This document shows, one piece after another, positions 10,132 to 60,312 of a DNA stretch of 64,000 nt (its first letter is position 1; each line of letters starts with the position of its first letter). Under the pieces are notes generated by a model, which was not told the DNA's origin, did no database searches, and saw nothing but the letters and a program-made list of their open reading frames with translations. A program made the position numbers and the translations under genes. Source of the DNA: Escherichia coli (lineage in GTDB: Bacteria > Pseudomonadota > Gammaproteobacteria > Enterobacterales > Enterobacteriaceae). Location: assembly GCF_003019035.1 (NCBI RefSeq), contig NZ_CP027447.1. One strand, 5' to 3'.

Positions 10132-10647
10132 ATGAGAAGAGTACTCTTTAGCTGTTTCTGCGGGCTACTGTGGAGTTCCAGTGGATGGGCAGTTGACCCT
10201 TTAGGAACGATTAATATCAATTTGCACGGTAACGTTGTTGATTTCTCCTGTACCGTAAACACAGCGGATAAGGATAAGACGGTAGATTTAGGCAGATGGC
10301 CTACGACACAATTACTGAGCGCTGGCGATACCACGGCACTCGTCCCTTTTAGCCTGCGGCTGGAGGGATGTCCTCCGGGTTCAGTTGCGATTTTATTTAC
10401 GGGAACGCCGGCATCTGATGCCAACCTGCTGGCTCTGGATGATCCCGCAATGGCACAAACCGTCGCCATCGAATTACGTAATAGCGATCGCTCCCGGCTC
10501 GCACTGGGGGAGGCGAGCTCGACTGAGGAAGTTGATGCAAATGGCAATGTCACACTAAACTTTTTTGCCAATTATCGAGCGTTAGCCAGCGGTGTTCAGC
10601 CTGGTGTGGCGAAAGCGGATGCGATATTTATGATCAATTATAATTAA
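10132..10647 (+). CDS. sfmF: fimbrial minor subunit SfmF
   Basis: 171-aa product starting MRRVLFSCFCGLLWSSSGWA (signal peptide); ATG at 10132 preceded by GGAG; track ORF 9937.. is an upstream in-frame extension. Confidence 0.85.
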   Translation: MRRVLFSCFCGLLWSSSGWAVDPLGTININLHGNVVDFSCTVNTADKDKTVDLGRWPTTQLLSAGDTTALVPFSLRLEGCPPGSVAILFTGTPASDANLLALDDPAMAQTVAIELRNSDRSRLALGEASSTEEVDANGNVTLNFFANYRALASGVQPGVAKADAIFMINYN

Positions 10648-10649
10648 TA

Positions 10650-20160: not shown

Positions 20161-20834
20161 CCCCCAGCTAAATCATGAACTTTTTGAGCCATTTTACTTA
20201 ATTCAGGGCAGGCTCCTAAACCTAATGGATCTGTGAAGCAACACGGATTCAGCACATAACCATAAGTGTTTAGTCCACCCAATACACCCAGGGGGTCACT
20301 CACCAGATACATCCCGGTCTCCGGCTCGTAGTACCGGAACCGGTTATAGCACAGCCCTGACTCCGCATCCCGCCACTGCCCCGCATACAGCAGACCGGGG
20401 TCCGCTTCTGCGTCTCGCTCCCCGCGCGGGTCCGGGTAGTCCCTGTCTGCGCTGACGCTGAGTGCCAGCCCCCACAGGCTGGTCTGCTCCGCACGCCACA
20501 CCACGTTACCCTGACTGTTAAAGAGCATCACCGGGCGGCCTGTCAGGTCGCTTACCGCATGGCTGGTCCGCGTCACCCACTGCGGGGCCACGGACGGGTG
20601 CGGCTGCCGTACCCGGCTGAACTGCTGGCTTATCAGCTCAAAGCCGTTAAACACCAGGTACCGCACACTGTACAGTTTATCATCGCGGTATTCCCGGATT
20701 TCCGCAATAGTGTCGCCGTCCCACAGATATGTGATGCGGAGGGCTTTTTGTTTGCAGCGTTTCTCTGTCCGTCTGCCACTGGCGTCGTGGCAGTATTCCC
20801 ACTGCTCACCCCGGGCGCTGCGGTAGCCGATCAC
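20118..20834 (-). pseudogene. orphan rhs C-terminal fragment (last about 206 aa of Rhs core plus a truncated alternative tip)
   Basis: Homologous to residues about 1260-1470 of the upstream Rhs through the PxxxxDPxGL core end (DPLGL); no upstream ORF or canonical start; only about 19 native residues follow DPLGL before the reading frame runs into the IS terminal repeat. Confidence 0.7.
20217..20834. repeat. direct repeat copy 1 (rhs core 3' end, orphan copy)
   Basis: About 620 bp, high-identity copy of 21694-22311 visible in both nucleotide and protein alignment. Confidence 0.75.
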
Positions 20835-20863
20835 GGCTGTCGTGGCGGAACTTTATCTCTTTT

Positions 20864-21253
20864 TTATTTAATCCAGTAAGCTAATCTCTCACCAATCTTC
20901 AAATTTTCTCTTTTGTAATAAAATACAGTATCAAAGTTAATGGATATTTTTTTCGCAATAACTTTGAATTTCAATTCAAATTCCGAATAAAACTCTAATA
21001 CTAACATTTCACGAGCATTGTCAGTGCAACTTGATAGCTTAATAAACTCCTCATTAAGATCGCATGACCAGTCCATAACACCGCTAATATAGCATGGCGT
21101 GTCTATTATTATTTCCAGTGTGTGATAGTAAGAAAGGTCATCACTCCCGGAAATAATCAAGCGATTATGTTCATAAAGAAAAACTGAAAAATCCAACCAA
21201 CTTTCTTTCCAATTATGGTGCTTTATATCATTAATTATGTTTTGCTCACTCAT
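20864..21253 (-). CDS. candidate cognate immunity protein for the Rhs C-terminal toxin
   Basis: 129-aa AT-rich ORF; its ATG overlaps the rhs TGA stop in a 4-bp ATGA overlap; positional analogy to rhsI genes; no family recognised from sequence. Confidence 0.6.
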   Translation of the reverse strand: MSEQNIINDIKHHNWKESWLDFSVFLYEHNRLIISGSDDLSYYHTLEIIIDTPCYISGVMDWSCDLNEEFIKLSSCTDNAREMLVLEFYSEFELKFKVIAKKISINFDTVFYYKRENLKIGERLAYWIK

Positions 21254-26103: not shown

Positions 26104-26122
26104 GTGTTATCCCTCGTTTATG

Positions 26123-26584
26123 TCAGCGCGGCTGGTCCTTTTGGATGTCATTCTCCGGTGGCAACGGGGTGAAGCTCTTTATCACCTCCAGCAGCATCGT
26201 CTTTTGACTGTTCTTCAGGGATAAGGAGGTGCTGAAAGTGAAGGTCAGCAGCGTATCTCCACGCCGCTGGAATACGGCTATCTGGCTAATCCGCCCCTGA
26301 TTCCCTTCATCTTCCGGACCGTTCCAGGAATAATCCAGCAGCCAGGCCGGGGCCTCTGCCAGAGTGATTTCCCGGCAGGCATGTTCGGTGTACCCATCAA
26401 GTTTGCCCTGGTACAGCGCCAGCGTTTCCTGGTACAGCTCTGGTGTCAGGGTTCCCTGTGGAACGGCTTCGCGGGTAATGACCAGGTTGATGCCACTGTT
26501 ATCTGTGGACACCAGGACCTGCATTGACTGATCCTGCCATTGAGACGGCAGTTGAATGTGGCCTTCATTAAAAGTGAACTGCAT
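26123..26584 (-). CDS. DUF1795 / Eag-family effector-associated chaperone
   Basis: 153-aa ORF between vgrG and the prePAAR-Rhs gene, tightly spaced; size and position typical of EagR-type chaperones. Confidence 0.75.
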   Translation of the reverse strand: MQFTFNEGHIQLPSQWQDQSMQVLVSTDNSGINLVITREAVPQGTLTPELYQETLALYQGKLDGYTEHACREITLAEAPAWLLDYSWNGPEDEGNQGRISQIAVFQRRGDTLLTFTFSTSLSLKNSQKTMLLEVIKSFTPLPPENDIQKDQPR

Positions 26585-26611
26585 AAAATACTCCCTGTTA
26601 ATCTGAGTGAA

Positions 26612-28513
26612 TCAGTTGATGAAAACAGAACCGCCCACGATGGTGATGCCATCCTTCGACAGCCTGATTACCGTCGATTCCCCGACCTGTAGCTGTATGC
26701 CATCCGGCGTCAGCGCAATTTTGCTTTCCTCCACGGCCAGCAAAATTTCCTTAATCGCCGTATAAGCCTGTATACCGTCGCCTTCGCCACCATTGTTTAC
26801 AGCGTCAACATGCACCGAACCGGCAATCGTGCCTCTGTCCTGAAAGACATCCTCAGATAAAGACCCTTTCAGTACTCCGGTGATCTTGTGGCCTTTTTCC
26901 ACCGTAAGAAGGCGGTTACCTTCCTGGATCGTGACCGTCTGGTCATTTTTTACGGTTTCGCGGTGATCGTGTTTTACGGTGGTGGTACGGTCGTTGAGCA
27001 CTTCGGTATCCATGTTCTTCTGCGCGTGGATGTAGACCTGTTCTCTCCCTGTCGCATCATCAAACTTCAGCTCATTAAATCCGCTGCCCATGTACGTTTT
27101 GGAGCGGATGGTCATCTGCGTCTTTGTTCCCGGCAGGCTGCCGGGGGTGCGGTTTTCCTGGTGGTAGGTGCGCCCCATAATGATCGGCTGGTCCGGATCG
27201 CCGTTGAGGAAGTCTACAATCACTTCCTGACCCACACGCGGTATCGCCAGGTGGCCAAAACCGGTGCCTGCCCACGCCTGTGCCACACGGATCCAGCACG
27301 AACTGTCTTGGTCTGCCGGGTTATAACGGTCCCAGTTGAACTTCACCCGCACGCGACCATGTTCGTCGCAGAAGATTTCCTCGCCTGCCGGTCCTGTCAC
27401 GACAGCGCTCTGCGGGCCGTCGACCAGCGGTTTCAGCAACGGCTGTGGTCGCCATGTTCTGTCTGCCGGGATCACCGCAAAATGGTTCTCCAGCGCCGTC
27501 CCCGCTCCCTGCCGTCCTGGCACCGCCTGTGGCTGTTCGCCGTGCAGTTCACTTGCCACCACCTGCCATTCCCGGTTCAGGTTCGCCTGCGGATGCCCCG
27601 TCAGCACAATTCGTCGTCCCGGCCATATCTCCGGCGAGCGACTCATTCCCCGCGCGGTTTCTGCATTGTTTCGCCAGCCGTCCATCTGCCAGCGGGCAAA
27701 GTTCTGCCCGTGGGCACCCTTGAAACGTCCGGGGTAGTCATACACTTCATACTGCGTGCGCTGGTAGTCCTGGTGCTGGCCTTCCTGTTCAAAACGTCCG
27801 GCCCAGCCGGGGCGTTTAAAGGTGTAGTCTTTGGTCACCACGGAAGAAGGGCGGATTTGTGCGCTGTAGCGGAACTGGCTGATGCAGAGGGTGCTCACCT
27901 CGGTACGGGTGTTCGGGTTCCATGGGATTTCAAAAGATTCGGGCAGATGGCGGACTGTGTCGCACAGCACCAGGCTCTGGTCGGTACTTTTGTAAGCATG
28001 CTCCTCATAAAAGAAGATGCCTTCCTCCGCCGCCATCCGGCACAGGAAATCGTAATCAGTCTCACCGTACTGGACACAAAACTCACGGGAAGGATGCGGC
28101 TCGCTGAACAGCGGACTCCATTCGGTCACCCCGTTTTCCTGCAACATCGTGCCGAGGATGCTTTTGATGTCCTCGTTCTGGAAGATACGGAAGTTCTGGC
28201 GCAGACCGGCACGCCACAGCGGCGGGTGCACCTTCATGCTGTACAGCATCTGGTTTTTGTCGTTCTCCCCCAGTTCAAACCAGGTCACCACGCCTTTCAC
28301 CCGGCGCTGTACTTCATCGCCCTGCCATATCGTCAGGTAGGCCATTTTGTCCAGCACCTGCGCAAATTCAAGGGAGAGAAACTGCTGGCTGACCAGGGAG
28401 AGATCGAGGGAAAAGAGCGAAGAGAGTGACTGGTTCAGATGAAAGGAAACCACCGCAAAAGCATCCGGCGGCAGGCCGTCCACTTCCAGTGTGAAACGTA
28501 ATCCGGTTGACAT
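26612..28513 (-). CDS. vgrG: type VI secretion spike protein VgrG
   Basis: 633-aa ORF starting MSTGLRFTLEVDGLPPDAF... with gp27/gp5-like regions and a C-terminal beta-helix-like segment; canonical VgrG N-terminus. Confidence 0.9.
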   Translation of the reverse strand: MSTGLRFTLEVDGLPPDAFAVVSFHLNQSLSSLFSLDLSLVSQQFLSLEFAQVLDKMAYLTIWQGDEVQRRVKGVVTWFELGENDKNQMLYSMKVHPPLWRAGLRQNFRIFQNEDIKSILGTMLQENGVTEWSPLFSEPHPSREFCVQYGETDYDFLCRMAAEEGIFFYEEHAYKSTDQSLVLCDTVRHLPESFEIPWNPNTRTEVSTLCISQFRYSAQIRPSSVVTKDYTFKRPGWAGRFEQEGQHQDYQRTQYEVYDYPGRFKGAHGQNFARWQMDGWRNNAETARGMSRSPEIWPGRRIVLTGHPQANLNREWQVVASELHGEQPQAVPGRQGAGTALENHFAVIPADRTWRPQPLLKPLVDGPQSAVVTGPAGEEIFCDEHGRVRVKFNWDRYNPADQDSSCWIRVAQAWAGTGFGHLAIPRVGQEVIVDFLNGDPDQPIIMGRTYHQENRTPGSLPGTKTQMTIRSKTYMGSGFNELKFDDATGREQVYIHAQKNMDTEVLNDRTTTVKHDHRETVKNDQTVTIQEGNRLLTVEKGHKITGVLKGSLSEDVFQDRGTIAGSVHVDAVNNGGEGDGIQAYTAIKEILLAVEESKIALTPDGIQLQVGESTVIRLSKDGITIVGGSVFIN

Positions 28514-44692: not shown

Positions 44693-46933
44693 TCAGAAGT
44701 GAGTATTAATGCTCATATACCACGTACGTCCCGGCTCGTTATAGGTATACGCGCCGGCACCGGCGATATAGTTGGCTCCTGCCAGATCGCCCGTGGTCTG
44801 GGCATTACCTGCACGCCACAAACGTTTGTCGAACAGGTTGTCCACGCCGCCGGTCAGACTGACATTCTTCGTCACATCCCAGGTCGCGCTCAGACCCACA
44901 ATGCTGTAAGGACTAATTTCTTTGGTTTCCGGGCCAACCGCTGGCTGACCTTTATAGTTGTATTTTTTCGGCTGCTGCTTGCCGTACCAGGTGAAGGTCG
45001 TTTGCATCGACAAATCTTCCCGTGCCTGCCAGCTCAGCGTTGAGTTCAACGTATATTCCGGGATGATCGACAAACGGTCGCCCGTGGTTTTGTTTTCACT
45101 CTTCAGCATATAAGTGATGTTATTGGTCCACATCACCGTTTCGCTAACCGGTACGTTTAACGATCCTTCCAGACCTTCAACCACCGCTTTCGGCACGTTA
45201 TCCCACTGATAGAGATCGGTGCCGACTGCGTTTTGCCCTACAGCCACATAGCCCGCTTCAATCTTATTGCGATAATCGTTACGGAACCAGGTGACGCCCG
45301 CCAGCCAGCCGTCGCGTTTGAACTCCAGACCAATCTCCTTGTTGATACTGGTTTCCGCTTTCAGGTCATCATTACCTTGCAGATAGCAGCCGCCCGCGCT
45401 GGCATAGCAACCCTGACCTTTACTGTAGAGAATGTAGTTCGGGTTAGTCTGGTACAGGCTCGGCGCTTTATAAGCACGGGCGATGCCCATTTTCAGCGTG
45501 AAGTCATCGCCTAAACCTTGCGATATGTTCAGCGCCGGGCTCCAGTTATTGCCGACTATACTGTGATGATCGAAACGCAGCCCCGGCGTTACGATGGTGC
45601 TGTCAGTCAGCTCCATGTTGTTTTCGGCAAACAGCGAGAAAATTTCTGCTTTTGAATACGGGCTACGGTCGGTGGCACTCACACCATCAATAGCGCCGCC
45701 GGTGTTCGTCCCGGTCAGCGCCTGGGTATTGGAACTCAAGTCCTTCATCCGCTGCTGATTCCACTCCGTACCCAGCGTCAGCGTCTGGTTAACGAGGAAA
45801 TCAATCGGCAGGTTAACTTCGCTATGCAGCATCACGTCATCGAGATCGATATCGACGAAATCCTGTGTCGCTTTTTCGTTAAATTTCCCTTCGGTACCGC
45901 CCGCCAGACCTTCCGGAATACGCGAGTTACGGGTGTGTTCGTACTGCACCCAGTTGCTGGTGGTCACGCCGTTATCCCAGCCACCGTTCCAGGTCAGCGC
46001 GTAGTTCTGGCGATACAGGCGGTTGGTTTCATCGCCATATTTCGAGCGAGTGTAAGCGTCAGAGTTGGTGTTCTGGGTATCGCCCGCATACAGGTTACCC
46101 TGGCGGCTGTAACCCGCTTCCAGTTCCAGCGATTGCAATGGTGCGAAGTCCCAGCGCACCACGCCGTTAATATCTTTATTGATCACCCCTTCGCGCCCGG
46201 CTGGTAACGTCGTGGCATACGTTCCGGCACGCGCGGACTGATGGCCTTGGTTGATATCCCACGCGTCAGCCTGGGTTTTGTCGAGGTTGCCATACAAGCG
46301 GAAGCTGAATTCGTCGCCCAGCGGACCGGTCAGGCTGAAGTTGGTGCGTTTGGTGGCACCTTCCTCTTTATGTTCTGGCGCATTGAAATAAGCATCCCAG
46401 GAGCCGTGCCACTCACCACTGCCTTTTTTGGTAATGATGTTAACCACGCCGCCCGCCGCGCCGTTGCCATAACGCGCAGCTGCCGGACCACGCAGAACTT
46501 CAATACGTTCAATCATTTCAGGTGGCACCCAGGAGGTATCACCACGGGTATCGCGCTCACCACGCCAGCCCTGACGCACCGAATTACGGCTGCTTACTGG
46601 CTTGCCGTCAATCAAAATCAGCGTGTTTTCCGGACCCATGCCGCGAATATCAATCTGGCGGTTATTACCACGCTGACCACTGGTGGAGTTACCGGTCAGG
46701 TTAACGCCTGGCATGGTACGGATGATCTCCGACACATCGCGGGCAACTGGGTTTTTGCGGATTTCATCTGCGGTGATGGTCGAAACGCCAGGCGCCTGTA
46801 AGTTCTGCTCAGCGGCGGTAACGACAATGGTATCGTCATGTGAAACAGGAGTATCGGTTGGCTCTTGTGCCTGTGCTACCCCATAAATCCCCAGATTGAC
46901 CAACAAGGCCAGGGAATGAATCTTCTTGTTCAT
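44693..46933 (-). CDS. fepA: TonB-dependent ferric enterobactin outer-membrane receptor FepA
   Basis: 746-aa product from MNKKIHSLALLVNLGIYGVAQA (signal peptide); TonB box and C-terminal aromatic residue. Confidence 0.95.
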   Translation of the reverse strand: MNKKIHSLALLVNLGIYGVAQAQEPTDTPVSHDDTIVVTAAEQNLQAPGVSTITADEIRKNPVARDVSEIIRTMPGVNLTGNSTSGQRGNNRQIDIRGMGPENTLILIDGKPVSSRNSVRQGWRGERDTRGDTSWVPPEMIERIEVLRGPAAARYGNGAAGGVVNIITKKGSGEWHGSWDAYFNAPEHKEEGATKRTNFSLTGPLGDEFSFRLYGNLDKTQADAWDINQGHQSARAGTYATTLPAGREGVINKDINGVVRWDFAPLQSLELEAGYSRQGNLYAGDTQNTNSDAYTRSKYGDETNRLYRQNYALTWNGGWDNGVTTSNWVQYEHTRNSRIPEGLAGGTEGKFNEKATQDFVDIDLDDVMLHSEVNLPIDFLVNQTLTLGTEWNQQRMKDLSSNTQALTGTNTGGAIDGVSATDRSPYSKAEIFSLFAENNMELTDSTIVTPGLRFDHHSIVGNNWSPALNISQGLGDDFTLKMGIARAYKAPSLYQTNPNYILYSKGQGCYASAGGCYLQGNDDLKAETSINKEIGLEFKRDGWLAGVTWFRNDYRNKIEAGYVAVGQNAVGTDLYQWDNVPKAVVEGLEGSLNVPVSETVMWTNNITYMLKSENKTTGDRLSIIPEYTLNSTLSWQAREDLSMQTTFTWYGKQQPKKYNYKGQPAVGPETKEISPYSIVGLSATWDVTKNVSLTGGVDNLFDKRLWRAGNAQTTGDLAGANYIAGAGAYTYNEPGRTWYMSINTHF

Positions 46934-47089
46934 TGTTTTATTCCTGCATTTTTGCCACGAATTGCAACTGTCGGGCATGGTCGTCATCAATACGACGCAC
47001 CCCGCTACCGCGAAAACCTTTGATCCTGAAAGACACGCAGTGCAGTTGGTTAATTAATGTCCGCGCTTCCCACGGCGCGCCATTACGCT

Positions 47090-47125
47090 ATTGCAAATGC
47101 AAATAGTTATCAATAATATTATCAA
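47090..47125. promoter_or_regulatory. Fur-box-like AT-rich operator in the fepA-fes divergent promoter region
   Basis: aatagttatcaataatattatc resembles the GATAATGATAATCATTATC consensus; sits between divergent iron-uptake genes. Confidence 0.5.
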
Positions 47126-47175
47126 TATATTTCTGCAATCAATAAAAAATTGCACAGTAAACATGGGGTTATGGT

Positions 47176-48378
47176 GTGACGGCGTTAAAAGTAGGAAGTG
47201 AGAGCTGGTGGCAGTCGAAACATGGCCCGGAATGGCAGCGTCTGAATGACGAAATGTTTGAGGTCACTTTCTGGTGGCGTGATCCCCAAGGTTCTGAAGA
47301 ATACTCGACGATAAAGCGCGTATGGGTCTACATCACTGGTGTGACCGATCACCATCAGAACAGCCAGCCCCAGTCGATGCAGCGAATTGCAGGCACCAAC
47401 GTCTGGCAGTGGACGACACAGCTCAATGCCAACTGGCGCGGCAGCTACTGCTTTATTCCCACCGAACGCGATGACATTTTTTCTGCACCATCCCCCGATC
47501 GCCTCGAATTACGTGAAGGCTGGCGAAAACTATTACCCCAGGCGATAGCCGATCCGCTGAATCCACAAAGCTGGAAAGGCGGGCGAGGGCACGCTGTTTC
47601 TGCACTCGAAATGCCGCAAGCGTCTCTGCAACCGGGATGGGATTGTCCGCAAGCGCCAGAAACGCCTGCCAAAGAAATTATCTGGAAAAGTGAACGGTTG
47701 AAAAATTCACGCCGTGTATGGATTTTTACCACCGGCGATGCAACAGCAGAAGAACGCCCGCTGGCAGTTTTGCTTGATGGTGAATTTTGGGCGCAGAGTA
47801 TGCCCGTCTGGCCTGCGCTAACTTCGCTGACCCATCGTCGGCAACTTCCTCCCGCCGTGTATGTGTTGATCGATGCTATCGACACCACGCACCGCGCCCA
47901 CGAACTGCCGTGTAATGCGGATTTCTGGCTGGCAGTACAGCAAGAGTTATTACCCCTGGTGAAAGCTATTGCCTCTTTTAGCGATCGCGCCGATCGCACC
48001 GTGGTCGCCGGGCAGAGTTTTGGTGGGCTTTCCGCGCTGTATGCCGGACTGCACTGGCCTGAACGCTTTGGCTGTGTATTAAGCCAGTCAGGATCGTACT
48101 GGTGGCCGCATCGGGGCGGGCAGCAAGAAGGTGCTTTACTTGAGCAACTTAAAGCTGGTCAAGTTAGTGCCGAAGGTCTGCGCATTGTGCTGGAAGCGGG
48201 TATTCGCGAGCCGATGATCATGCGGGCCAATCAGGCGCTGTATGCGCAATTACACCCCATAAAAGAATCCATTTTCTGGCGTCAGGTTGACGGCGGACAT
48301 GATGCGCTTTGTTGGCGCGGTGGCTTGATGCAGGGGCTAATCGACCTCTGGCAACCACTTTTCCATGACAGGAGTTGA
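47176..48378 (+). CDS. fes: enterochelin esterase Fes
   Basis: 400-aa ORF from GTG (MTALKVGSESWWQSKHGPEW...). Confidence 0.9.
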   Translation: MTALKVGSESWWQSKHGPEWQRLNDEMFEVTFWWRDPQGSEEYSTIKRVWVYITGVTDHHQNSQPQSMQRIAGTNVWQWTTQLNANWRGSYCFIPTERDDIFSAPSPDRLELREGWRKLLPQAIADPLNPQSWKGGRGHAVSALEMPQASLQPGWDCPQAPETPAKEIIWKSERLKNSRRVWIFTTGDATAEERPLAVLLDGEFWAQSMPVWPALTSLTHRRQLPPAVYVLIDAIDTTHRAHELPCNADFWLAVQQELLPLVKAIASFSDRADRTVVAGQSFGGLSALYAGLHWPERFGCVLSQSGSYWWPHRGGQQEGALLEQLKAGQVSAEGLRIVLEAGIREPMIMRANQALYAQLHPIKESIFWRQVDGGHDALCWRGGLMQGLIDLWQPLFHDRS

Positions 48379-48380
48379 AT

Positions 48381-48599
48381 ATGGCATTCAGTAATCCCTT
48401 CGATGATCCGCAGGGAGCGTTTTACATTTTGCGCAATGCGCAGGGGCAATTCAGTCTGTGGCCGCAACAATGCCTCTTACCGGCAGGCTGGGACATTGTG
48501 TGTCAGCCGCAGTCACAAGAGTCCTGCCAGCAGTGGCTGGAAGTCCACTGGCGTACTCTGACACCGGCGAATTTCACCCAGTTGCAGGAGGCACAATGA
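48381..48599 (+). CDS. ybdZ: MbtH-like protein YbdZ
   Basis: 72-aa MAFSNPFDDPQGAFYILRNAQGQFSLWP...; its stop overlaps the entF start (ATGA). Confidence 0.9.
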   Translation: MAFSNPFDDPQGAFYILRNAQGQFSLWPQQCLLPAGWDIVCQPQSQESCQQWLEVHWRTLTPANFTQLQEAQ

Positions 48600-51500
48600 G
48601 CCAGCATTTACCTTTGGTCGCCGCACAGCCCGGCATCTGGATGGCAGAAAAACTGTCGGATTTACCCTCCGCCTGGAGCGTGGCGCATTACGTTGAGTTA
48701 ACCGGAGAGGTTGATGCGCCATTACTGGCCCGCGCGGTGGTTGCCGGATTAGCGCAAGCAGATACGCTGCGGATGCGTTTTACGGAAGATAACGGCGAAG
48801 TCTGGCAGTGGGTCGATGATGCGCTGACGTTCGAACTGCCAGAAATTATCGACCTGCGAACCAACATTGATCCGCACGGTACTGCGCGGGCATTAATGCA
48901 GGCGGATTTGCAACAAGATCTGCGCGTCGATAGCGGTAAACCACTGGTCTTTCATCAGTTGATACAGGTGGCGGATAACCGCTGGTACTGGTATCAGCGT
49001 TATCACCATTTGCTGGTCGATGGCTTCAGTTTCCCGGCCATTACCCGCCAGATCGCCAATATTTACTGCGCATGGCTGCGTGGCGAACCAACGCCTGCTT
49101 CGCCGTTTACGCCTTTCGCTGATGTAGTGGAAGAGTACCAGCAATACCGCGAAAGCGAAGCCTGGCAGCGTGATGCGGCATTCTGGGCGGAACAGCGTCG
49201 TCAATTGCCGCCGCCCGCGTCACTTTCTCCGGCACCTTTACCGGGGCGCAGCGCCTCGGCAGATATTCTACGCCTGAAACTGGAATTTACCGACGGGGAA
49301 TTCCGCCAGTTGGCTACGCAACTTTCAGGTGTGCAGCGTACCGATTTAGCCCTTGCGCTGGCGGCTTTGTGGCTGGGGCGATTGTGCAACCGCATGGACT
49401 ACGCTGCCGGATTTATCTTTATGCGTCGACTGGGCTCGGCGGCGCTGACGGCTACCGGACCCGTGCTCAACGTTTTGCCGTTGGGTATTCATATTGCGGC
49501 GCAAGAAACGCTGCCGGAACTGGCTACCCGACTGGCGGCTCAACTGAAAAAAATGCGTCGCCATCAACGTTACGATGCCGAACAAATTGTCCGTGACAGC
49601 GGGCGAGCGGCAGGTGATGAACCGCTGTTTGGTCCGGTACTCAATATCAAGGTATTTGATTACCAACTGGATATTCCTGATGTTCAGGCACAAACCCATA
49701 CCCTGGCTACCGGTCCGGTTAATGACCTTGAGCTGGCCCTGTTCCCGGATGAACACGGTGATTTGAGTATTGAGATCATCGCCAATAAACAGCGTTACGC
49801 TGAGCCAACGTTAATCCAGCATGCTGAACGCCTGAAAATGCTGATTGCCCAGTTCGCCGCGGATCCGGCGCTGTTGTGCGGCGATGTCGATATTATGCTG
49901 CCAGGTGAATATGTGCAGCTGGCGCAGATCAACGCCACTCAGGTTGAGATTCCAGAAACCACGCTGAGCGCGCTGGTGGCAGAAAAAGCGGCAAAAACAC
50001 CGGATGCTCCGGCGCTGGCAGATGCGCGCTACCAGTTCAGCTATCGGGAAATGCGCGAGCAGGTAGTGGCGCTGGCAAATCTCCTGCGTGAGCGTGGCGT
50101 TAAACCGGGCGACAGCGTAGCGGTGGCGCTACCGCGCTCGGTCTTTTTGACTCTGGCGCTACATGCAATTGTTGAGGCTGGTGCGGCCTGGTTACCGCTG
50201 GATACCGGCTATCCGGACGATCGCCTGAAAATGATGCTGGAAGATGCGCGTCCGTCGCTGTTAATCACCACCGACGATCAACTGCCGCGCTTTAGCGATA
50301 TCCCCAATTTAACCAGCCTTTGCTATAACGCCCCGCTTACACCGCAGGGCAGTGCGCCGCTGAAACTTTCACAACCGCACCACACGGCTTATATCATCTT
50401 TACCTCTGGCTCCACCGGCAGGCCGAAAGGGGTAATGGTCGGGCAGACGGCTATCGTTAACCGCCTGCTTTGGATGCAAAACCACTACCCGCTTACAGGC
50501 GAAGATGTCGTTGCCCAAAAAACGCCGTGCAGTTTTGATGTCTCGGTGTGGGAGTTTTTCTGGCCGTTTATTGCCGGGGCTAAACTGGTGATGGCTGAAC
50601 CGGAAGCGCACCGCGACCCGCTCGCTATGCAGCAATTCTTTGCCGAATATGGTGTAACGACCACGCACTTTGTGCCGTCGATGCTGGCGGCATTTGTTGC
50701 ATCGCTGACGCCGCAAACCGCTCGTCAGAATTGCGCGACGTTGAAACAGGTTTTCTGTAGTGGTGAGGCCTTACCGGCTGATTTATGCCGCGAATGGCAA
50801 CAGTTAACCGGCGCGCCGTTGCATAATCTATATGGCCCGACGGAAGCGGCGGTAGATGTCAGTTGGTATCCGGCTTTTGGCGAGGAACTGGCAGAGGTGC
50901 GCGGCAGCAGTGTGCCGATTGGTTATCCGGTGTGGAATACGGGCCTGCGCATTCTCGATGCGATGATGCATCCGGTGCCGCCGGGTGTGGCGGGAGATCT
51001 CTATCTCACCGGTATTCAACTGGCGCAGGGGTATCTTGGACGACCCGATCTGACCGCCAGCCGCTTTATTGCCGATCCTTTTGCCCCAGGTGAACGGATG
51101 TACCGTACCGGCGATGTGGCCCGCTGGCTGGATAACGGCGCAGTGGAGTACCTCGGGCGCAGTGACGATCAGCTAAAAATTCGCGGGCAGCGTATCGAAC
51201 TGGGCGAAATTGATCGCGTGATGCAGGCGCTGCCGGATGTCGAACAAGCCGTTACCCACGCCTGTGTGATTAACCAGGCGGCAGCCACTGGTGGTGATGC
51301 GCGTCAGTTGGTGGGCTATCTGGTGTCGCAATCAGGTCTGCCGTTGGATACCAGCGCATTACAGGCGCAGCTTCGTGAAACATTGCCACCACATATGGTA
51401 CCGGTGGTTCTGCTGCAACTTCCACAGTTACCACTTAGCGCCAACGGCAAGCTGGATCGCAAAGCCTTACCGTTGCCTGAACTGAAGGCACAAGCGCCGG

Positions 51501-52477
51501 GGCGTGCGCCGAAAGCGGGCAGTGAAACGATTATCGCCGCGGCATTCTCGTCGTTGCTGGGTTGTGACGTGCAGGATGCCGATGCTGATTTCTTTGCGCT
51601 TGGCGGTCATTCGCTACTGGCAATGAAACTGGCAGCGCAGTTAAGTCGGCAGTTTGCCCGTCAGGTGACGCCGGGTCAGGTGATGGTTGCGTCAACTGTC
51701 GCCAAACTGTCAACGATTATTGATGGTGAAGAAGACAGCACCCAGCGCATGGGATTCGAAGCCATTCTGCCGTTGCGTGAAGGTAATGGCCCGACGCTGT
51801 TTTGTTTCCATCCGGCCTCCGGTTTTGCCTGGCAGTTCAGCGTGCTCTCGCGTTATCTCGATCCACAATGGTCGATTATCGGCATTCAGTCGCCGCGCCC
51901 TCATGGCCCCATGCAGACGGCGGCAAACCTGGATGAAGTCTGCGAAGCGCATCTGGCAACGTTACTTGAACAACAACCGCACGGCCCATATTACCTGCTG
52001 GGTTATTCACTTGGCGGTACGCTGGCGCAGGGTATTGCGGCGCGGCTGCGTGCCCGTGGCGAACAGGTGGCATTTCTTGGCTTGCTGGATACCTGGCCGC
52101 CAGAAACGCAAAACTGGCAGGAAAAAGAGGCTAATGGCCTGGACCCGGAAGTGCTGGCGGAGATTAACCGCGAGCGCGAGGCCTTCCTGGCGGCACAGCA
52201 GGGAAGTACTTCAACGGAGTTGTTTACCACCATTGAAGGCAACTACGCTGATGCTGTGCGCCTGCTGACGACTGCTCATAGCGTACCGTTTGAAGGTAAA
52301 GCGACGCTGTTTGTTGCTGAACGCACGCTTCAGGAAGGTATGAATCCCGAACGCGCCTGGTCGCCGTGGATTACGGAGCTGGATATCTATCGTCAGGATT
52401 GTGCGCATGTGGATATTATCTCGCCGATGGCGTTTGAAAAAATAGGGCCGATTATTCGTGCGACGCTAAATAAGTAA
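48596..52477 (+). CDS. entF: enterobactin non-ribosomal peptide synthetase EntF (C-A-PCP-TE)
   Basis: 1293-aa product from MSQHLPLVAAQPGIWMAEKL; adenylation-domain core motifs, PCP motif (GGHSLLAM) and thioesterase GYSLGG. Confidence 0.95.
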   Translation: MSQHLPLVAAQPGIWMAEKLSDLPSAWSVAHYVELTGEVDAPLLARAVVAGLAQADTLRMRFTEDNGEVWQWVDDALTFELPEIIDLRTNIDPHGTARALMQADLQQDLRVDSGKPLVFHQLIQVADNRWYWYQRYHHLLVDGFSFPAITRQIANIYCAWLRGEPTPASPFTPFADVVEEYQQYRESEAWQRDAAFWAEQRRQLPPPASLSPAPLPGRSASADILRLKLEFTDGEFRQLATQLSGVQRTDLALALAALWLGRLCNRMDYAAGFIFMRRLGSAALTATGPVLNVLPLGIHIAAQETLPELATRLAAQLKKMRRHQRYDAEQIVRDSGRAAGDEPLFGPVLNIKVFDYQLDIPDVQAQTHTLATGPVNDLELALFPDEHGDLSIEIIANKQRYAEPTLIQHAERLKMLIAQFAADPALLCGDVDIMLPGEYVQLAQINATQVEIPETTLSALVAEKAAKTPDAPALADARYQFSYREMREQVVALANLLRERGVKPGDSVAVALPRSVFLTLALHAIVEAGAAWLPLDTGYPDDRLKMMLEDARPSLLITTDDQLPRFSDIPNLTSLCYNAPLTPQGSAPLKLSQPHHTAYIIFTSGSTGRPKGVMVGQTAIVNRLLWMQNHYPLTGEDVVAQKTPCSFDVSVWEFFWPFIAGAKLVMAEPEAHRDPLAMQQFFAEYGVTTTHFVPSMLAAFVASLTPQTARQNCATLKQVFCSGEALPADLCREWQQLTGAPLHNLYGPTEAAVDVSWYPAFGEELAEVRGSSVPIGYPVWNTGLRILDAMMHPVPPGVAGDLYLTGIQLAQGYLGRPDLTASRFIADPFAPGERMYRTGDVARWLDNGAVEYLGRSDDQLKIRGQRIELGEIDRVMQALPDVEQAVTHACVINQAAATGGDARQLVGYLVSQSGLPLDTSALQAQLRETLPPHMVPVVLLQLPQLPLSANGKLDRKALPLPELKAQAPGRAPKAGSETIIAAAFSSLLGCDVQDADADFFALGGHSLLAMKLAAQLSRQFARQVTPGQVMVASTVAKLSTIIDGEEDSTQRMGFEAILPLREGNGPTLFCFHPASGFAWQFSVLSRYLDPQWSIIGIQSPRPHGPMQTAANLDEVCEAHLATLLEQQPHGPYYLLGYSLGGTLAQGIAARLRARGEQVAFLGLLDTWPPETQNWQEKEANGLDPEVLAEINREREAFLAAQQGSTSTELFTTIEGNYADAVRLLTTAHSVPFEGKATLFVAERTLQEGMNPERAWSPWITELDIYRQDCAHVDIISPMAFEKIGPIIRATLNK

Positions 52478-52691
52478 ATTTATATTATCTATAAACCCAT
52501 AATTACAATAAATGATTATGGGTTTATTATTTATTTAATTTATCAATTTAACGGATATTTCTCTGAAATAGAGTGAATGTTGCATTCAGTGGGAGGAATT
52601 TACAAACTTCAGCTTCGGATAAATCTCACCAACTGGTAAAGTGGGGGCCGTGGAGATTTACTCTTATTGGACCCATTTCAGGTTATATCGC

Positions 52692-53825
52692 ATGTCATCA
52701 CTGAATATTAAACAGGGAAGTGACGCTCATTTTCCCGAGTATCCTCTGGCGTCGCCCAGTAATAATGAAATTGATTTACTTAATCTAATCGACGTTTTAT
52801 GGCGGGCAAAAAAAACGGTCATGGCGGTCGTTTTTGCGTTTGCCTGCACAGGATTGCTGATCTCTTTCATCCTGCCGCAAAAATGGACCAGCTCCGCCGT
52901 CATTACTCCCGCAGAGGCTATTCAGTGGCAGGACCTGGAGAAAAACTTTACTAAACTGCGCGTTCTGGATCTTGATGTTAATCTCGATCGTAATGGAGTA
53001 TTTAATCTATTTATCAAGAAGTTTCAGTCTATTAGCTTACTGGAAGAGTACCTGCGCTCATCACCTTATGTGATGGACCAATTAAAAGAGGCGAAAATCG
53101 ACGAACTGGATTTGCATCGCGCTATCGTCGCATTGAGCGAAAAAATGAAAGCGGTTGATGACAATGCCAGTAAGAAAAAAGATGAACCGTCACTGTATAC
53201 CTCCTGGACGCTAAGTTTCACCGCGCCAACCAGTGAAGAGGCGCAGACCGTTTTGAGCGGGTATATCGATTATATCTCTGCGTTGGTGGTGAAAGAGTCG
53301 CTAGAAAACGTCCGTAATAAACTGGAGATCAAAACCCAGTTTGAAAAAGAAAAACTGGCTCAGGATCGCATTAAAACGAAAAATCAACTTGATGCAAACA
53401 TTCAGCGCCTCAATTATTCACTCGACATTGCCAACGCGGCAGGAATTAAAAAGCCCGTATACAGTAATGGTCAGGCCGTTAAAGATGACCCCGATTTCTC
53501 TATTTCTCTCGGTGCAGACGGTATTGAACGCAAACTGGAAATTGAAAAAGCGGTTACTGACGTTGCGGAATTGAACGGTGAATTACGTAATCGTCAGTAT
53601 CTTGTTGAGCAGCTAACAAAAGCAAATATCAACGATGTGAATTTTACACCGTTTAAATATCAGTTAAGACCGTCATTGCCAGTGAAAAAAGACGGTCCGG
53701 GTAAGGCGATTATTGTGATCCTTTCTGCGATGATCGGCGGGATGGTGGCTTGTGGTGGCGTGCTGTTGCGCCATGCGATGGCATCCAGAAAACAGGATGC
53801 CGTGATGGAAGAGCACTTAGTTTAA
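52692..53825 (+). CDS. fepE: polysaccharide co-polymerase (Wzz-like) FepE
   Basis: 377-aa product from MSSLNIKQGSDAHFPEYPLASP... Confidence 0.9.
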   Translation: MSSLNIKQGSDAHFPEYPLASPSNNEIDLLNLIDVLWRAKKTVMAVVFAFACTGLLISFILPQKWTSSAVITPAEAIQWQDLEKNFTKLRVLDLDVNLDRNGVFNLFIKKFQSISLLEEYLRSSPYVMDQLKEAKIDELDLHRAIVALSEKMKAVDDNASKKKDEPSLYTSWTLSFTAPTSEEAQTVLSGYIDYISALVVKESLENVRNKLEIKTQFEKEKLAQDRIKTKNQLDANIQRLNYSLDIANAAGIKKPVYSNGQAVKDDPDFSISLGADGIERKLEIEKAVTDVAELNGELRNRQYLVEQLTKANINDVNFTPFKYQLRPSLPVKKDGPGKAIIVILSAMIGGMVACGGVLLRHAMASRKQDAVMEEHLV

Positions 53826-54637
53826 ATCTTGGCAGTTGAAGGTGCCGTTCGTCCGAGCGGCACCACGAGCGGAGTTCCGGCTACCGGATCGTCAATAATC
53901 ATGCAGCGCAGACCATAAATGCGCTCGATCAATTCAGCAGTGACAATCTCCTTCGGCGCTCCCTGAGCAACAATTTTCCCTTCCCGCAATGCAATCAAAT
54001 GGCTGGCGTAACGACAGGCCTGATTAAGATCGTGCAGCACCGCCGCCAGGGTATAGCCTTTCTCGCGGTTCAGTTCGCTTAACAGTTCCAGCAAATCAAT
54101 CTGATGACTGATATCCAGCCAGGTCGTGGGTTCATCGAGCAGCATAATCGCCGTTTCCTGGGCCAGCACCATCGCGATCCACGCTCGCTGGCGTTGTCCG
54201 CCAGAAAGGGTATCCACGCTTTGATCTGCCAGATGGGTGATTCCCGTGGCCTGCATCGCTTTTGTGACTGCCTCTTCATCTTCTTTCCGCCAGCGGGTAA
54301 ACAGCGGTTGATGCGGATAACGCCCACGCGCCACCAGCTCCTGCACGGTGATATCGCCCGGCGTGGTAGCATTTTGCGCCAACAGACCAATCCGCCGGGC
54401 AACTTCTTTACTGGCGTAATGTTGAATGTGCTCGCCATCCAGCCAGACATGCCCGTGAGCAGGCGTCATCAGGCGGCTTAAAGTACGCAGTAAAGTGGAT
54501 TTACCGCAGCCATTTGGCCCGATAATTGCCGTGAAGTGACCATCAGGTATTTCTACAGTCAGATTCTCCGCAACGGTATATTTGCCATATCCGAGGGTTA
54601 ACTGTTCGCCACGCAAACGGGCTACTGATTCGGTCAT
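53822..54637 (-). CDS. fepC: ferric enterobactin ABC transporter ATP-binding protein FepC
   Basis: 271-aa product MTESVARLRGEQLTLGYG... with Walker A GPNGCGKST and ABC signature LSGGQRQR. Confidence 0.93.
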   Translation of the reverse strand: MTESVARLRGEQLTLGYGKYTVAENLTVEIPDGHFTAIIGPNGCGKSTLLRTLSRLMTPAHGHVWLDGEHIQHYASKEVARRIGLLAQNATTPGDITVQELVARGRYPHQPLFTRWRKEDEEAVTKAMQATGITHLADQSVDTLSGGQRQRAWIAMVLAQETAIMLLDEPTTWLDISHQIDLLELLSELNREKGYTLAAVLHDLNQACRYASHLIALREGKIVAQGAPKEIVTAELIERIYGLRCMIIDDPVAGTPLVVPLGRTAPSTAKI

Positions 54638-55626
54638 TTTTTGCGAGACTCCTGAATTAACAAGACGATAAGGTAAATACCGCCGAGGCTGACGGTAACG
54701 ACGCCAACCGGAAGTTGATACGGCATAAACAGTTGTTGGGCGCAGAGATCGGCCGCCAGTAATAACAACGCCCCGCACAGCGCCGCCTGGGTCAGCCCCC
54801 AGCGAGCGGTGCCGCTAATGCGGCGGGCAATGTGTGGCGCGACTAAAGCAATAAAGGAAATCGGCCCCGCCAGGGCAGTGGCAGCTGCGGTAAGCACTAC
54901 GGCGACCAGCATCATTAACAGCCGCGAACGTTCGACGCTGACGCCCAGCGCACATGCGGTATCATCGCCCATTTCCAGCAAGCGCATTCGCCGCACCAGC
55001 AAGGCGGCGGCAATGAGCATCAATATAATGATGGGTGCGGAAGGCGAGGTTTTTGCCCACGTCAGGCCGTTGAGCGATCCGGCATTCCACAAACCCGCTG
55101 TTAGCGCCGTTTCTAAAGACGCTTTCAGCAACAGCCAGGTATTAAAGGCCACCAGCATGGCGCGAACACCGATACCGATAATAATCAACCGAAAGGTGTC
55201 GATACCGTTACGCCAGGCGAGCAGCCAGACCAGCAGCGAGGTGACAATACCCCCCGCCATTGCTGCCAGCGCGATAGCCGTCAGATCCTGACCAAACAGC
55301 ACCATCGCCACCAGTACGCCGCTCCACGCCCCGGTGTTAAAGCCCATTACGTCAGGGCTGCCGAGCGGGTTACGCATCAGCGACTGAAAAATCGCGCCGC
55401 TGACGCCCAGTGCCGCGCCAATCAACAGCGCCATCAGCACGCGTGGTAAACGCCATTCGGTGACCACCTTCGTCATACTGCGCGGCGCATCGCCCATCAG
55501 AGCGGCGAATACCTGCGAGGTTTCCAGCGTGACGGCACCGCTACGTAATCCCCAGATACCTGCAACCACACAGGCGGAAATCAGCAGCAAACAGGTGATG
55601 AGTAATCGGCGAGAGACGTAAATCAT
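54634..55626 (-). CDS. fepG: ferric enterobactin ABC transporter permease FepG
   Basis: 330-aa polytopic membrane ORF, FecCD family. Confidence 0.93.
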   Translation of the reverse strand: MIYVSRRLLITCLLLISACVVAGIWGLRSGAVTLETSQVFAALMGDAPRSMTKVVTEWRLPRVLMALLIGAALGVSGAIFQSLMRNPLGSPDVMGFNTGAWSGVLVAMVLFGQDLTAIALAAMAGGIVTSLLVWLLAWRNGIDTFRLIIIGIGVRAMLVAFNTWLLLKASLETALTAGLWNAGSLNGLTWAKTSPSAPIIILMLIAAALLVRRMRLLEMGDDTACALGVSVERSRLLMMLVAVVLTAAATALAGPISFIALVAPHIARRISGTARWGLTQAALCGALLLLAADLCAQQLFMPYQLPVGVVTVSLGGIYLIVLLIQESRKK

Positions 55627-56627
55627 GCACCACCTCGCGTTTTACGTCGCACGAGGAAGATCAGCACCGGTGCACCAATAAACGCACTGACCACAGAAAC
55701 GCGCAGCTCGCCGGGCACAATCACCCGCCCGATGATATCGGCAAACAGCAGCAGGGCAGGGGTAGCAAGTAGCGTGACGGGCAGCGACCAGCGATGATCG
55801 GCACCCACCAGCCAGCGCGCCATATGCGGCATCATCAGGCCAATAAAGGCAATCGGGCCAACTACCGCCGTCGCACTACCACAAAGCACGGTAATCGCCA
55901 GCAGGCCAATTAACTGCGTCCGTGCCACGCGACTACCCAGCGCCGTCGCGGTGTCGCTGCCGAGGCTTAAACTATTCAGCGCGCGGCTCAGTAATAGCGC
56001 GGTTGCTCCGGCGATCAGCACTGGGATCAGCACCACTTTTAAGGTGTGCAGATTACGAATATCCAGCGAACCGGCTTGCCAGAAACGCAACTGATCGTAG
56101 ACGTCAGGGTTGAGCAGGGCGATGCCGCTGGTCAGCCCTTCAAGCACCGCCGCCAGCGCCACGCCCGCCAGGGTTAAACGCACCGGACTTAACTGCCCGC
56201 CGCCCTGGCTGCCGGTAAAGGCAACAATCAACGAGGCCACCAGCGCCCCGGCGAAGGCCATCGCCAGTTGTTCCTGCGCGGATGAGTAACCAAACAGCGC
56301 AGCACCCAGCACAATGGCAAAGCTGGCTCCGGCGTTCACACCAAGCAAGCCGGGGTCGGCAAGTGGGTTTCGGGTGAGGGTTTGCATCAACGCCCCGGCA
56401 AGGCCAAGCGCACCGCCGGCCAGTAAACCGGCAAGGGTGCGCGGCAGTCGCGCGTCGAGCACGATGGTGCAGTCGGCGCTCTGGCAGGTGCCGGAGAGGG
56501 CCTCCAGCACTACGGAAGCGGGGAGTGATTTTGCCCCAATGAGCAGGCTTAATGCCGTCGCGATAATCAGTAATAACAGCAATCCGGGCACGGCAATGGC
56601 GCGTGTCACGGCAACAGAACCAGACAT
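55623..56627 (-). CDS. fepD: ferric enterobactin ABC transporter permease FepD
   Basis: 334-aa product from MSGSVAVTRAIAVPGLLLL... Confidence 0.92.
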   Translation of the reverse strand: MSGSVAVTRAIAVPGLLLLLIIATALSLLIGAKSLPASVVLEALSGTCQSADCTIVLDARLPRTLAGLLAGGALGLAGALMQTLTRNPLADPGLLGVNAGASFAIVLGAALFGYSSAQEQLAMAFAGALVASLIVAFTGSQGGGQLSPVRLTLAGVALAAVLEGLTSGIALLNPDVYDQLRFWQAGSLDIRNLHTLKVVLIPVLIAGATALLLSRALNSLSLGSDTATALGSRVARTQLIGLLAITVLCGSATAVVGPIAFIGLMMPHMARWLVGADHRWSLPVTLLATPALLLFADIIGRVIVPGELRVSVVSAFIGAPVLIFLVRRKTRGGA

Positions 56628-56639
56628 ACGAACTTCCAT

Positions 56640-56665
56640 GATAATGAAATTAATTATCGTTATCG
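56640..56665. promoter_or_regulatory. Fur-box-like operator in the fepD-entS divergent region
   Basis: gataatgaaattaattatcgttatc resembles the Fur consensus. Confidence 0.5.
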
Positions 56666-56737
56666 ATCTTATTTGGATATGTTAGCATGTGCAGCCCAAG
56701 AATAGGTATTTAAAATATTTGATGGCAAGGCATTGTA

Positions 56738-57988
56738 ATGAATAAACAATCCTGGCTGCTTAACCTCAGCCTGTTGAAAACGCACCCGGCGTTTCGCGCA
56801 GTATTCCTCGCTCGTTTTATCTCAATTGTGTCTCTGGGCTTGCTCGGCGTCGCGGTGCCGGTGCAGATCCAGATGATGACGCATTCTACCTGGCAGGTGG
56901 GGCTTTCGGTGACGCTGACCGGCGGCGCGATGTTTGTTGGCCTGATGGTCGGCGGTGTGCTGGCGGATCGCTATGAACGCAAAAAAGTGATTTTGCTGGC
57001 GCGCGGCACCTGTGGCATTGGCTTCATTGGACTGTGCCTGAACGCGCTGCTGCCGGAGCCGTCATTGCTGGCAATCTATTTACTTGGTTTATGGGATGGT
57101 TTTTTCGCATCGCTTGGCGTTACGGCGCTACTGGCGGCGACACCTGCACTGGTAGGGCGTGAAAACTTAATGCAGGCCGGGGCGATCACCATGTTGACCG
57201 TGCGTCTGGGATCGGTGATTTCGCCCATGATTGGCGGTTTATTGCTGGCGACCGGAGGCGTAGCCTGGAACTACGGACTGGCGGCGGCGGGCACGTTTAT
57301 TACCTTGCTACCGTTGTTAAGCCTTCCGGCGTTGCCACCACCGCCGCAGCCGCGTGAGCATCCGTTGAAATCATTACTGGCAGGATTTCGTTTTCTACTC
57401 GCCAGCCCGCTGGTGGGAGGGATTGCGTTGCTGGGTGGTTTATTGACGATGGCGAGCGCGGTGCGGGTCCTGTATCCGGCGATGGCTGACAACTGGCAGA
57501 TGTCGGCGGCACAGATTGGTTTTCTCTATGCGGCGATTCCGCTCGGCGCGGCTATTGGCGCGTTAACCAGCGGGAAGCTGGCACATAGCGCGCGACCAGG
57601 GTTATTGATGCTGCTCTCCACGCTGGGATCGTTCCTCGCCATTGGTCTGTTTGGCCTGATGCCGATGTGGATTTTAGGCGTGGTTTGTCTGGCGCTGTTC
57701 GGCTGGCTGAGCGCGGTCAGCTCACTGCTGCAATATACAATGCTGCAAACGCAAACCCCGGAAGCGATGTTAGGGCGGATTAACGGTTTGTGGACGGCGC
57801 AAAACGTGACGGGCGATGCCATAGGCGCGGCGCTGCTGGGCGGTTTGGGAGCGATGATGACACCGGTTGCTTCCGCAAGCGCGAGCGGTTTTGGTTTGTT
57901 GATTATCGGCGTGTTGTTATTGCTGGTGCTGGTGGAGTTGCGACGTTTTCGCCAGACGCCGCCGCAGATGACAGCGTCCGACAGTTAA
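56738..57988 (+). CDS. entS: enterobactin exporter EntS (MFS)
   Basis: 416-aa 12-[35 protein letters not shown]... Confidence 0.93.
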
Positions 57989-57991
57989 TGC

Positions 57992-58948
57992 TTAAAACAG
58001 CGCCTTAAGTCGTTCCAGCACTTGCATGGCGCTGTAGTAATCCAGGCGGAACGTCTCGGTTCCCAGCGCATAAACCTGCTTGTTTTGTACTGCAGGCAGG
58101 TGCGCGAGCAGTGGATTGGCATAAATCGCATCGGCATCTTTCTGATCACCAGCGAACAGGAATAGTGAATCGCCATTTAACCCTGCAGCCAGATTTTCTC
58201 CACCAAGCTGAATGATGTCATGGCGTTTGCCCTGGCTTTGGCTGGCGTTTAACCCTGCGGGCAATTTCGCCAACGTAAAGCCGAGTTGTTCCAGCATCTG
58301 CCCTTGTGCTGATTCCGGCGTCCAGAGATTGGCACTGTGTGCAGCGGCGGTATAGACAATGGCAGTGACCGGCTGCGGCGGTAATTTGATTTGCTCTTTC
58401 GCCGCCGCCAGTTGCTTATCAAACTGCGCAATCCGCTCTGCCGCTTGTTTCTCATGCCCGGTAATTTCGCCAAGCTGCGTTAACAGCGACTGCCAGCTTT
58501 TGTCGTCGTAATTGATGATTAATGTTGGGGCGATGGTAGAAAGCTGATCGTACAGCGCCAGCGCCGAATCCCCGCCGGTTGCGCTAATTAAAATCAGATC
58601 CGGCATTTGCGCGGCAACGGCTTCTGCACTCGGTTCGCCGATATAGAGCCGTTGCAGTTTGCGTTCTTTCGCCACCTTGCTCCACTGGCGTAAAAAGCCC
58701 TGGTCATCCGCGACGCGGTTATTTGGCGTGGTCGCGCCGCTGGCGATCACCGGAGCATCAATCGCCAGCAGTGAGCCGGTCAGGGTGACGCTGGTGGAAA
58801 CTATACGCTGCGGCTGGCTTTCCAGGGTATGAGTGCCACGGCTGTCAGTAATCTGACGCGGCCAGTCGGCGGCCTGAACTGCGGCTATTCCTGAAAGCAA
58901 AAGTCCTGTTAATAGAAGGGCGTTGCGGTAGAGCGGGGCGAGTCTCAC
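57992..58948 (-). CDS. fepB: periplasmic ferric enterobactin-binding protein FepB
   Basis: 318-aa ORF with signal peptide [26 protein letters not shown]. Confidence 0.93.
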
Positions 58949-59088
58949 AAGTCAGCTTCCTGTTATTAATGAAGTTAATGCTTCTCATTTTCATTGTAAC
59001 CACAAACAGATGCAACCCCGAGTTGCAGATTGCGTTATCTCAAGAGTTGACATAGTGCGCGTTTGCTTTTAGGTTAGCGACCGAAAAT

Positions 59089-59107
59089 ATAAATGATAAT
59101 CATTATT
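59089..59107. promoter_or_regulatory. Fur box in the fepB-entC divergent promoter
   Basis: ATAAATGATAATCATTATT matches 15 of 19 positions of GATAATGATAATCATTATC, about 30 bp upstream of the entC start. Confidence 0.75.
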
Positions 59108-59136
59108 AAAGCCTTTATCATTTTGTGGAGGATGAT

Positions 59137-60312
<1,176 letters not shown>

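Follow-up and report, generated by a model that had tools for sequence, protein, structure and literature searches.

Fur operators of the enterobactin gene cluster in an Escherichia coli chromosome and their identity to footprinted K-12 DNA

The enterobactin cluster and its divergent intergenic regions

The DNA analyzed here, called the window below, is a 64-kb stretch (64,000 nucleotides) of an Escherichia coli chromosome, and the entire enterobactin (ent/fep) cluster lies inside it. An 801-bp stretch around the fepA/fes site is 100% identical to E. coli SCU-301 and was found in 5414 of the 5426 complete E. coli genomes. Gene coordinates are those of the RefSeq annotation of the identical record (SCU-301), converted to window positions. 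The ferric enterobactin receptor gene fepA is located at 44693–46933 on the minus strand and is followed by fes, which encodes the enterochelin esterase from a GTG start on the plus strand (47176–48378). The genes ybdZ, entF, fepE, fepC and fepG lie between fes and fepD, the latter being gene 1 of fepDGC (55623–56627, minus strand). Next to it are the enterobactin exporter gene entS (57988 being its last position and 56738 its first, plus strand) and fepB, which encodes the periplasmic binding protein (57992–58948, minus strand). Finally, entC, gene 1 of entCEBAH, is located at 59137–60312 on the plus strand, with entE, entB, entA and entH 3′ of it in the same orientation. This arrangement leaves three divergent intergenic regions, namely fepA(−)/fes(+) at 46934–47175, fepD(−)/entS(+) at 56628–56737 and fepB(−)/entC(+) at 58949–59136, with a G+C content of only 32–42%. 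A preliminary description of the window had placed Fur-box-like sites in the divergent promoter regions of exactly these three gene pairs, and the annotation, a position weight matrix (PWM) and published footprints all bear this out. The fur gene is located outside the window, and its 5′ region is present in 5424/5426 complete E. coli genomes.

Concerning the 5′ end of fes, the annotation places the start at the GTG of 47176 (400 aa); the ATG at 47254 corresponds to the start formerly used for K-12. The longer form is favored by the conservation of 47160–47215, which includes a GGGG Shine-Dalgarno-like run 5′ of 47176. A 12-codon ORF starting with the ATG at 47163 (47163–47201) overlaps the GTG start of fes. 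Elsewhere in the window, from cusS to nfrBA (~18900–28500), there is an island with type VI secretion VgrG, DcrB-like and frameshifted Rhs genes, and a frameshifted ISAs1 transposase is also found there. This segment varies between strains and has no relation to the Fur operators.

Fur sites in the window and footprinted DNA of K-12

The 19-bp consensus GATAATGATAATCATTATC was scanned over the whole 64-kb window on both strands and matches were counted out of 19, the chance level being estimated from 200 dinucleotide-preserving shuffles of the window. Four sites with at least 15/19 were observed where 0.12 were expected, and one with at least 16/19 where 0.01 were expected, so that sites of 15–16/19 exceed chance by far. 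The site at 59089–59107 near entC matches at 15/19, precisely the count given for it in the preliminary description, which had also called the fepB/entC region the best match. By this count that rank belongs to fepD/entS, where the top consensus match of the window is located (16/19 at 56640–56658, with a further 15/19 at 56646–56664); fepB/entC holds it by PWM score only (24.5 bits). The fourth site is on the fepB side, at 58974–58992 on the minus strand (15/19). The fepA/fes region reaches a maximum of 13/19 at 47093–47111, followed by 12/19 at 47099, 47105 and 47111 in 6-bp phasing. Since 38 positions of the window score at least 13/19 (7.5 expected), the fepA/fes match is not distinctive by this count alone. 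Consensus counting sets the fepD-entS, fepB and entC sites off from the background, but it fails for fepA-fes; it was consequently abandoned as the sole measure and a PWM was used instead.

Published Fur models were partly trained on ent sites, and in order to avoid this circularity the PWM was built from 16 K-12 Fur sites, none of which belongs to the ent cluster (fhuA, gpmA, nohA, yoeA, cir, exbB, ryhB, sodA, fecI, fecA, fhuF, sufA, bfd, mntH, fur, and tonB). Centers of the training sites were taken from Table 4 of Chen et al. (2007; PMC2189734) and cross-checked with annotated gene starts. The resulting model is symmetric, 19 bp long, carries ~23 bits and has the consensus AATGATAATnATTATCATT; its weakest training sites score 12.4 bits, or 7.3 bits when left out of the model. 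Among the ~64,000 positions of the window, the six top scores all fall within the three divergent promoter regions, with centers at 59101 (24.5 bits, entC), 56652 (19.4 bits, fepD/entS), 47105 (18.0 bits, fepA/fes), 59095 (16.4 bits, entC), 56658 (14.8 bits, fepD/entS), and 58986 (14.1 bits, fepB). In shuffled windows, 0.30 sites of at least 14 bits (observed: 7) and 0.04 of at least 18 bits are expected per window, and when each intergenic region was shuffled alone, preserving dinucleotides, its observed maximum was reached in ≤0.15% of the trials. All four operators (24.5, 19.4, 18.0, and 14.1 bits) score above the weakest proven training sites (12.4 bits), and this includes the three sites of the preliminary description, at 18.0, 19.4, and 24.5 bits. 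That description had listed three sites, all of which are real, but it overlooked a separate fourth operator at the fepB promoter (58968–58998). Chen et al. (2007) reported scores of 23.1 bits for entC, 19.4 for fepD-entS, 18.7 for fepA-fes, and 16.7 for fepB (PMC2189734), and after coordinate conversion our centers and scores reproduce theirs. Positive-scoring sites recur at 6-bp offsets within each operator, with one 3-bp offset in entC (59098), and clusters with 6-bp (or 3-bp) offsets are the pattern of all footprinted Fur sites (PMC2189734).

Two further candidates in the window were rejected. The seventh-best PWM match (10636–10654, 14.0 bits, AATTATAATTAATATTATA) is found in an AT-rich stretch where fimZ and sfmF have their 3′ ends; it is of low complexity with no promoter near and was judged a chance match. 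The other, at the 5′ end of fepE (~52767–52773, 8–9 bits), is weak and lies inside coding sequence, again with no promoter near.

DNase I footprints of Fur in K-12 have been compiled in Table 3 of Chen et al. (2007; PMC2189734) from the original studies (Brickman, 1990; Hunt, 1994; Lavrrar, 2002). On NC_000913.2 they span 611868–611915 for fepA-fes, 621394–621462 for fepD-entS, 623939–623969 for fepB, and 624054–624102 for entC (PMC2189734). These sequences were extracted from K-12 and searched as exact strings in the window, which yielded exact copies for fepA-fes at 47084–47131 (48 bp), for fepD-entS at 56609–56677 (69 bp), and for entC at 59083–59131 (49 bp). Of the fepB footprint, 23 of the 31 bp matched, its bases 9–31 corresponding to 58976–58998. 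Compared with the K-12 operators (fepA-fes, fepD-entS/ybdA, fepB, and entC), genes and positions are therefore the same, three of the four footprint sequences are 100% identical, and PWM centers and bit scores agree. The ranges claimed in the preliminary description (47090–47125, 56640–56665, and 59089–59107) fall inside the K-12 footprints, and the footprinting literature to which it had pointed for fes-fepA and fepB-entC is matched by exact K-12 sequences at 47084–47131 and 59083–59131 (PMC2189734). Additionally, fepA, fes, fepB/C/D/G, entS and entCEBAH have been assigned to the Fur regulon by ChIP-exo and expression data from nine E. coli strains (PMC10164565), and strong repression of ent and fep genes by Fur has been reported for K-12 (PMC4676285). 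As these reports concern K-12 and other E. coli rather than the present strain, Fur binding and Fur-dependent expression are predicted here on the strength of the literature.

Taken together, the sites are almost certainly the four classical operators through which Fur controls the E. coli enterobactin cluster. The main finding is already known and nothing about it is new, the locus being the textbook system itself rather than a relative of it. The preliminary description rightly regarded the sites as expected biology and as a positive control, with footprint identity, PWM, conservation and regulon membership in agreement. A reading of the raw sequence thus located experimentally established regulatory sites with coordinates inside published footprints, and its main value is that of a control.

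Operator conservation and mode of repression

A FepD-anchored scan yielded 80 loci from different Enterobacteriaceae species, with genera including Escherichia, Citrobacter, Salmonella, Klebsiella, Raoultella, Enterobacter, Kluyvera, Kosakonia, and Buttiauxella. Gene order is identical across all 80 loci, and the usable regions numbered 61 for fepA-fes, 79 for fepD-entS, and 75 for fepB-entC. Every orthologous intergenic region holds a high-scoring Fur site, the lowest best-site score being 18.0 bits for fepA-fes (61/61), 19.4 bits for fepD-entS (79/79), and 17.9 bits for fepB-entC (75/75). Sites of at least 12.4 bits occur at 10.05 per kb inside the three regions and at 0.0198 per kb over the 1.47 Mb outside them. 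The footprints are islands of conservation, their identity to the window compared with that of the rest of the region being 0.96 vs. 0.52 for fepA-fes, 0.81 vs. 0.67 for fepD-entS, and 0.81 vs. 0.59 for fepB-entC. The conserved blocks extend over 40–50 bp, far longer than promoter hexamers. The conservation of the operators is not fully separable from that of the hexamers they overlap. The fepA-fes operator is near letter-identical in other Enterobacteriaceae, and counting matches out of 19 mis-ranks Fur sites, as this operator looks like noise at 13/19 while being footprinted and near-invariant across genera. Sequence match, excess over chance, identity to footprinted K-12 DNA and deep conservation are what the present work shows.

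Concerning the way in which these operators may act, one is common to fepA and fes and one to fepDGC and entS, with separate ones for fepB and for entCEBAH. Each consists of Fur-box units (tGATAATnATTATCa) that overlap in an array with a 6-bp offset. Under iron sufficiency, Fe2+-Fur dimers, more than one per operator, would occupy the arrays, and bound Fur would block RNA polymerase, so that the synthesis of enterobactin would be switched off jointly with its export and uptake. Under iron scarcity, Fur would come off the DNA and all the operons would be derepressed. The blocking step is the inferred part of this scheme. The operators resemble the archetypal Fur box of the aerobactin operon (iucA of pColV-K30), a GATAAT hexamer array, in their overlapping GATAAT/ATTATC units and probably in the binding of several Fur dimers over the sigma-70 promoter of a siderophore operon (PMC2189734). 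However, iucA has one promoter, and its secondary footprint is unusually long (291–393, 13 predicted sites; PMC2189734), whereas the ent operators measure 31–69 bp with 2–4 predicted sites, two of these operators each acting on a pair of divergent promoters.

The fepA-fes operator (47084–47131) is a single one for both divergent promoters, with PWM centers at 47105 (18.0 bits), 47111 (5.5 bits), and 47117 (10.1 bits) in 6-bp spacing, and the 43 bp TACGCTATTGCAAATGCAAATAGTTATCAATAATATTATCAAT are almost invariant across genera. A consensus promoter scan returned few sites. For fepA it proposed a putative minus-strand promoter with −35 TTGATT (47142–47137) and −10 TATTAT (47118–47113). This −10 lies within the operator and shows no variation between species; conservation of the −35 is poor, which makes its hexamer assignment uncertain. 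The putative fes promoter, on the plus strand, was read from the sequence (−35 TTGCAA at 47091–47096, −10 TAATAT at 47114–47119), its 8/12 match being below the cut-off of the scanning tool. The start points of fepA and fes are 19 bp apart and their promoters overlap almost completely (PMC4469952). The predicted fes start, at ~47126, would be ~20 bp from that predicted for fepA, consistent with the published distance, and the overlapping −10-like hexamers of the two genes (47113–47119), both inside the operator, fit the published start-point geometry as well. As both putative −10 elements and both start points fall under the operator, promoter occlusion is favored at fepA-fes, and Fe2+-Fur would keep RNA polymerase off the two promoters simultaneously.

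Near-invariance reaches to the left of the PWM cluster (47096–47126), over 47077–47095 with TACGCTATTGC and the putative fes −35, and it suggests constraints beyond Fur binding. Directly left of the operator there is also a GC-rich inverted repeat, CGCGCT-TCCCAC-GGCGCG (47061–47080, within 47059–47083). Part of this block (47077–47095 together with the inverted repeat at 47061–47080) may have a second function besides Fur binding, as the site of another regulator or by forming a structure in the leader of the fepA mRNA, a possibility that we rate as somewhat unlikely. It would account for the near-invariance down to ~47077 and for the inverted repeat, which is retained as CGCGCT-N6-GGCGCG in most of the 61 species (AGCGCG in most other species), and the stretch would fall within the first ~50 nt of the fepA transcript if this starts at ~47106. 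However, the footprint itself starts at position 47084, and some of the extra conservation is therefore that of Fur-protected DNA. Moreover, an Rfam scan of 46800–59400 matched no known RNA element, and variation of the repeat among the 61 species consists mostly of loss or sequence change, with no clear compensatory pairs.

The fepD-entS operator (56609–56677) has PWM centers at 56646 (7.1 bits), 56652 (19.4 bits), 56658 (14.8 bits), and 56664 (1.8 bits). Its box at 56640–56658 reads GATAATGAAATTAATTATC in Escherichia (19.4 bits) vs. GATAATGATAGTAATTATC in other genera (median 22.7 bits), the lower score being due to two derived, lineage-specific Escherichia substitutions. According to Chen et al. 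(2007), the Fur cluster there overlaps no strong sigma-70 promoter and sits, for either gene, in the stretch from promoter to start codon, and repression might be weak (PMC2189734). The operator apparently lies downstream of both start points, so that a roadblock-type mechanism is also conceivable at this site. Specifically, Fur could bind fepD-entS, and possibly entC, without excluding the polymerase from the promoter and act instead downstream of the start points, either as a roadblock or through a block of promoter escape, which we consider fairly unlikely. Besides the published position of the cluster, a promoter-like site in the fepD direction at 56728–56699, upstream of the operator, would fit such a mode, as would the −35 element proposed below for entC, which would place the entC start at the left edge of its operator. 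On the other hand, a second promoter-like site in the fepD direction lies inside the operator (56666–56638), and these promoter positions are consensus guesses only. Overlapping opposing promoters with a common Fur site, as described in the primary literature, would likewise speak against a roadblock.

The entC-proximal operator (59083–59131) contains the strongest PWM site of the window, with centers at 59095 (16.4 bits), 59098 (7.7 bits), 59101 (24.5 bits), and 59113 (9.8 bits), and AAATATAAATGATAATCATTAT within it is conserved across genera. A TTGACA on the plus strand at 59047–59052, a perfect −35 consensus that is >90% conserved in 74 species, is likely the −35 of entC; transcription would then start at ~59082. 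A promoter-scan match at the operator itself was discarded as evidence, since the ‘promoter’ reported there is just the Fur box palindrome. Between the fepB and entC operators, a terminator-like hairpin (TGCAACTCGGGGTTGCA then TCTGTTTGTG) is located at 59011–59033 on the minus strand, in the direction of fepB, and its arms are partly conserved.

That the matches and their conservation are a mere by-product of AT-rich promoter DNA, with its −10-like and UP-like elements, is hardly credible: the regions are indeed only 32–42% G+C, the operators share sequence with predicted −10 and −35 hexamers, a 14.0-bit match occurs in AT-rich non-promoter DNA (10636–10654) and fepA-fes reaches just 13/19, but region-wise dinucleotide shuffles attain the observed scores in ≤0.15% of the trials, the conserved blocks measure 40–50 bp against short hexamers, ChIP-exo and expression data put the genes in the Fur regulon (PMC10164565) and the published footprints on identical sequences already contradict it. 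The reading of the sites as the classical Fur operators is accordingly retained.

The fepB control region

The fepB-proximal operator (58968–58998) is supported by the 23/31 bp of the K-12 footprint, the PWM and the consensus. Its PWM centers are located at 58986 (14.1 bits) and 58980 (10.8 bits), and its core TAATGCTTCTCATTTTCAT is invariant across species. Mapping of K-12 coordinates with a single offset failed for fepB and entC, and this revealed a 186-bp insert of K-12 (16542–16727 of the K-12 locus, L002), which is absent here at 58977/58978, in the fepB leader. The K-12 fepB footprint owes its leftmost 8 bp to the right end of the insert, and it is because the insert ends exactly there that these 8 bp differ in the present strain. 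Consequently, the left flank of the operator reads AATGAAGT here vs. TCCATCAA in K-12, and the left sub-site changes from ATCAATAATGCTTCTCATT (18.2 bits) in K-12 to GAAGTTAATGCTTCTCATT (10.8 bits). Relative to K-12, the fepB leader is reduced by 186 nt, and owing to the absence of the repeat the operator is located ~20–50 bp from the fepB start codon instead of ~206–236 bp.

The 186-bp sequence is a dispersed, G-rich repeat; the median number of places per genome is 6 and the maximum 13. About half of the complete E. coli genomes (2721/5426) contain a full-length copy, and it was seen between fepB and entC in K-12 and in the single further genome inspected. The repeat carries GGGAGAGGGTTAGGGTGAGGG, the ‘HPG1’ quadruplex/hairpin motif, which has been listed at fepB/entC (PMC5100583). 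The full insert is absent from all 74 other species examined, while E. whittamii (L019) bears a shorter insert at the same spot. We tentatively propose, as a reading that we regard as rather doubtful, that the fepB control region differs among E. coli strains, with a polymorphism that reaches into the operator itself, that the textbook architecture of K-12, the strain used in all the experiments, is the derived state, and that iron regulation or translation of fepB could differ measurably between lineages. This strain difference in the fepB operator and leader is the only item presented here with some new content, and it may be of relevance when iron regulation is compared across E. coli lineages.
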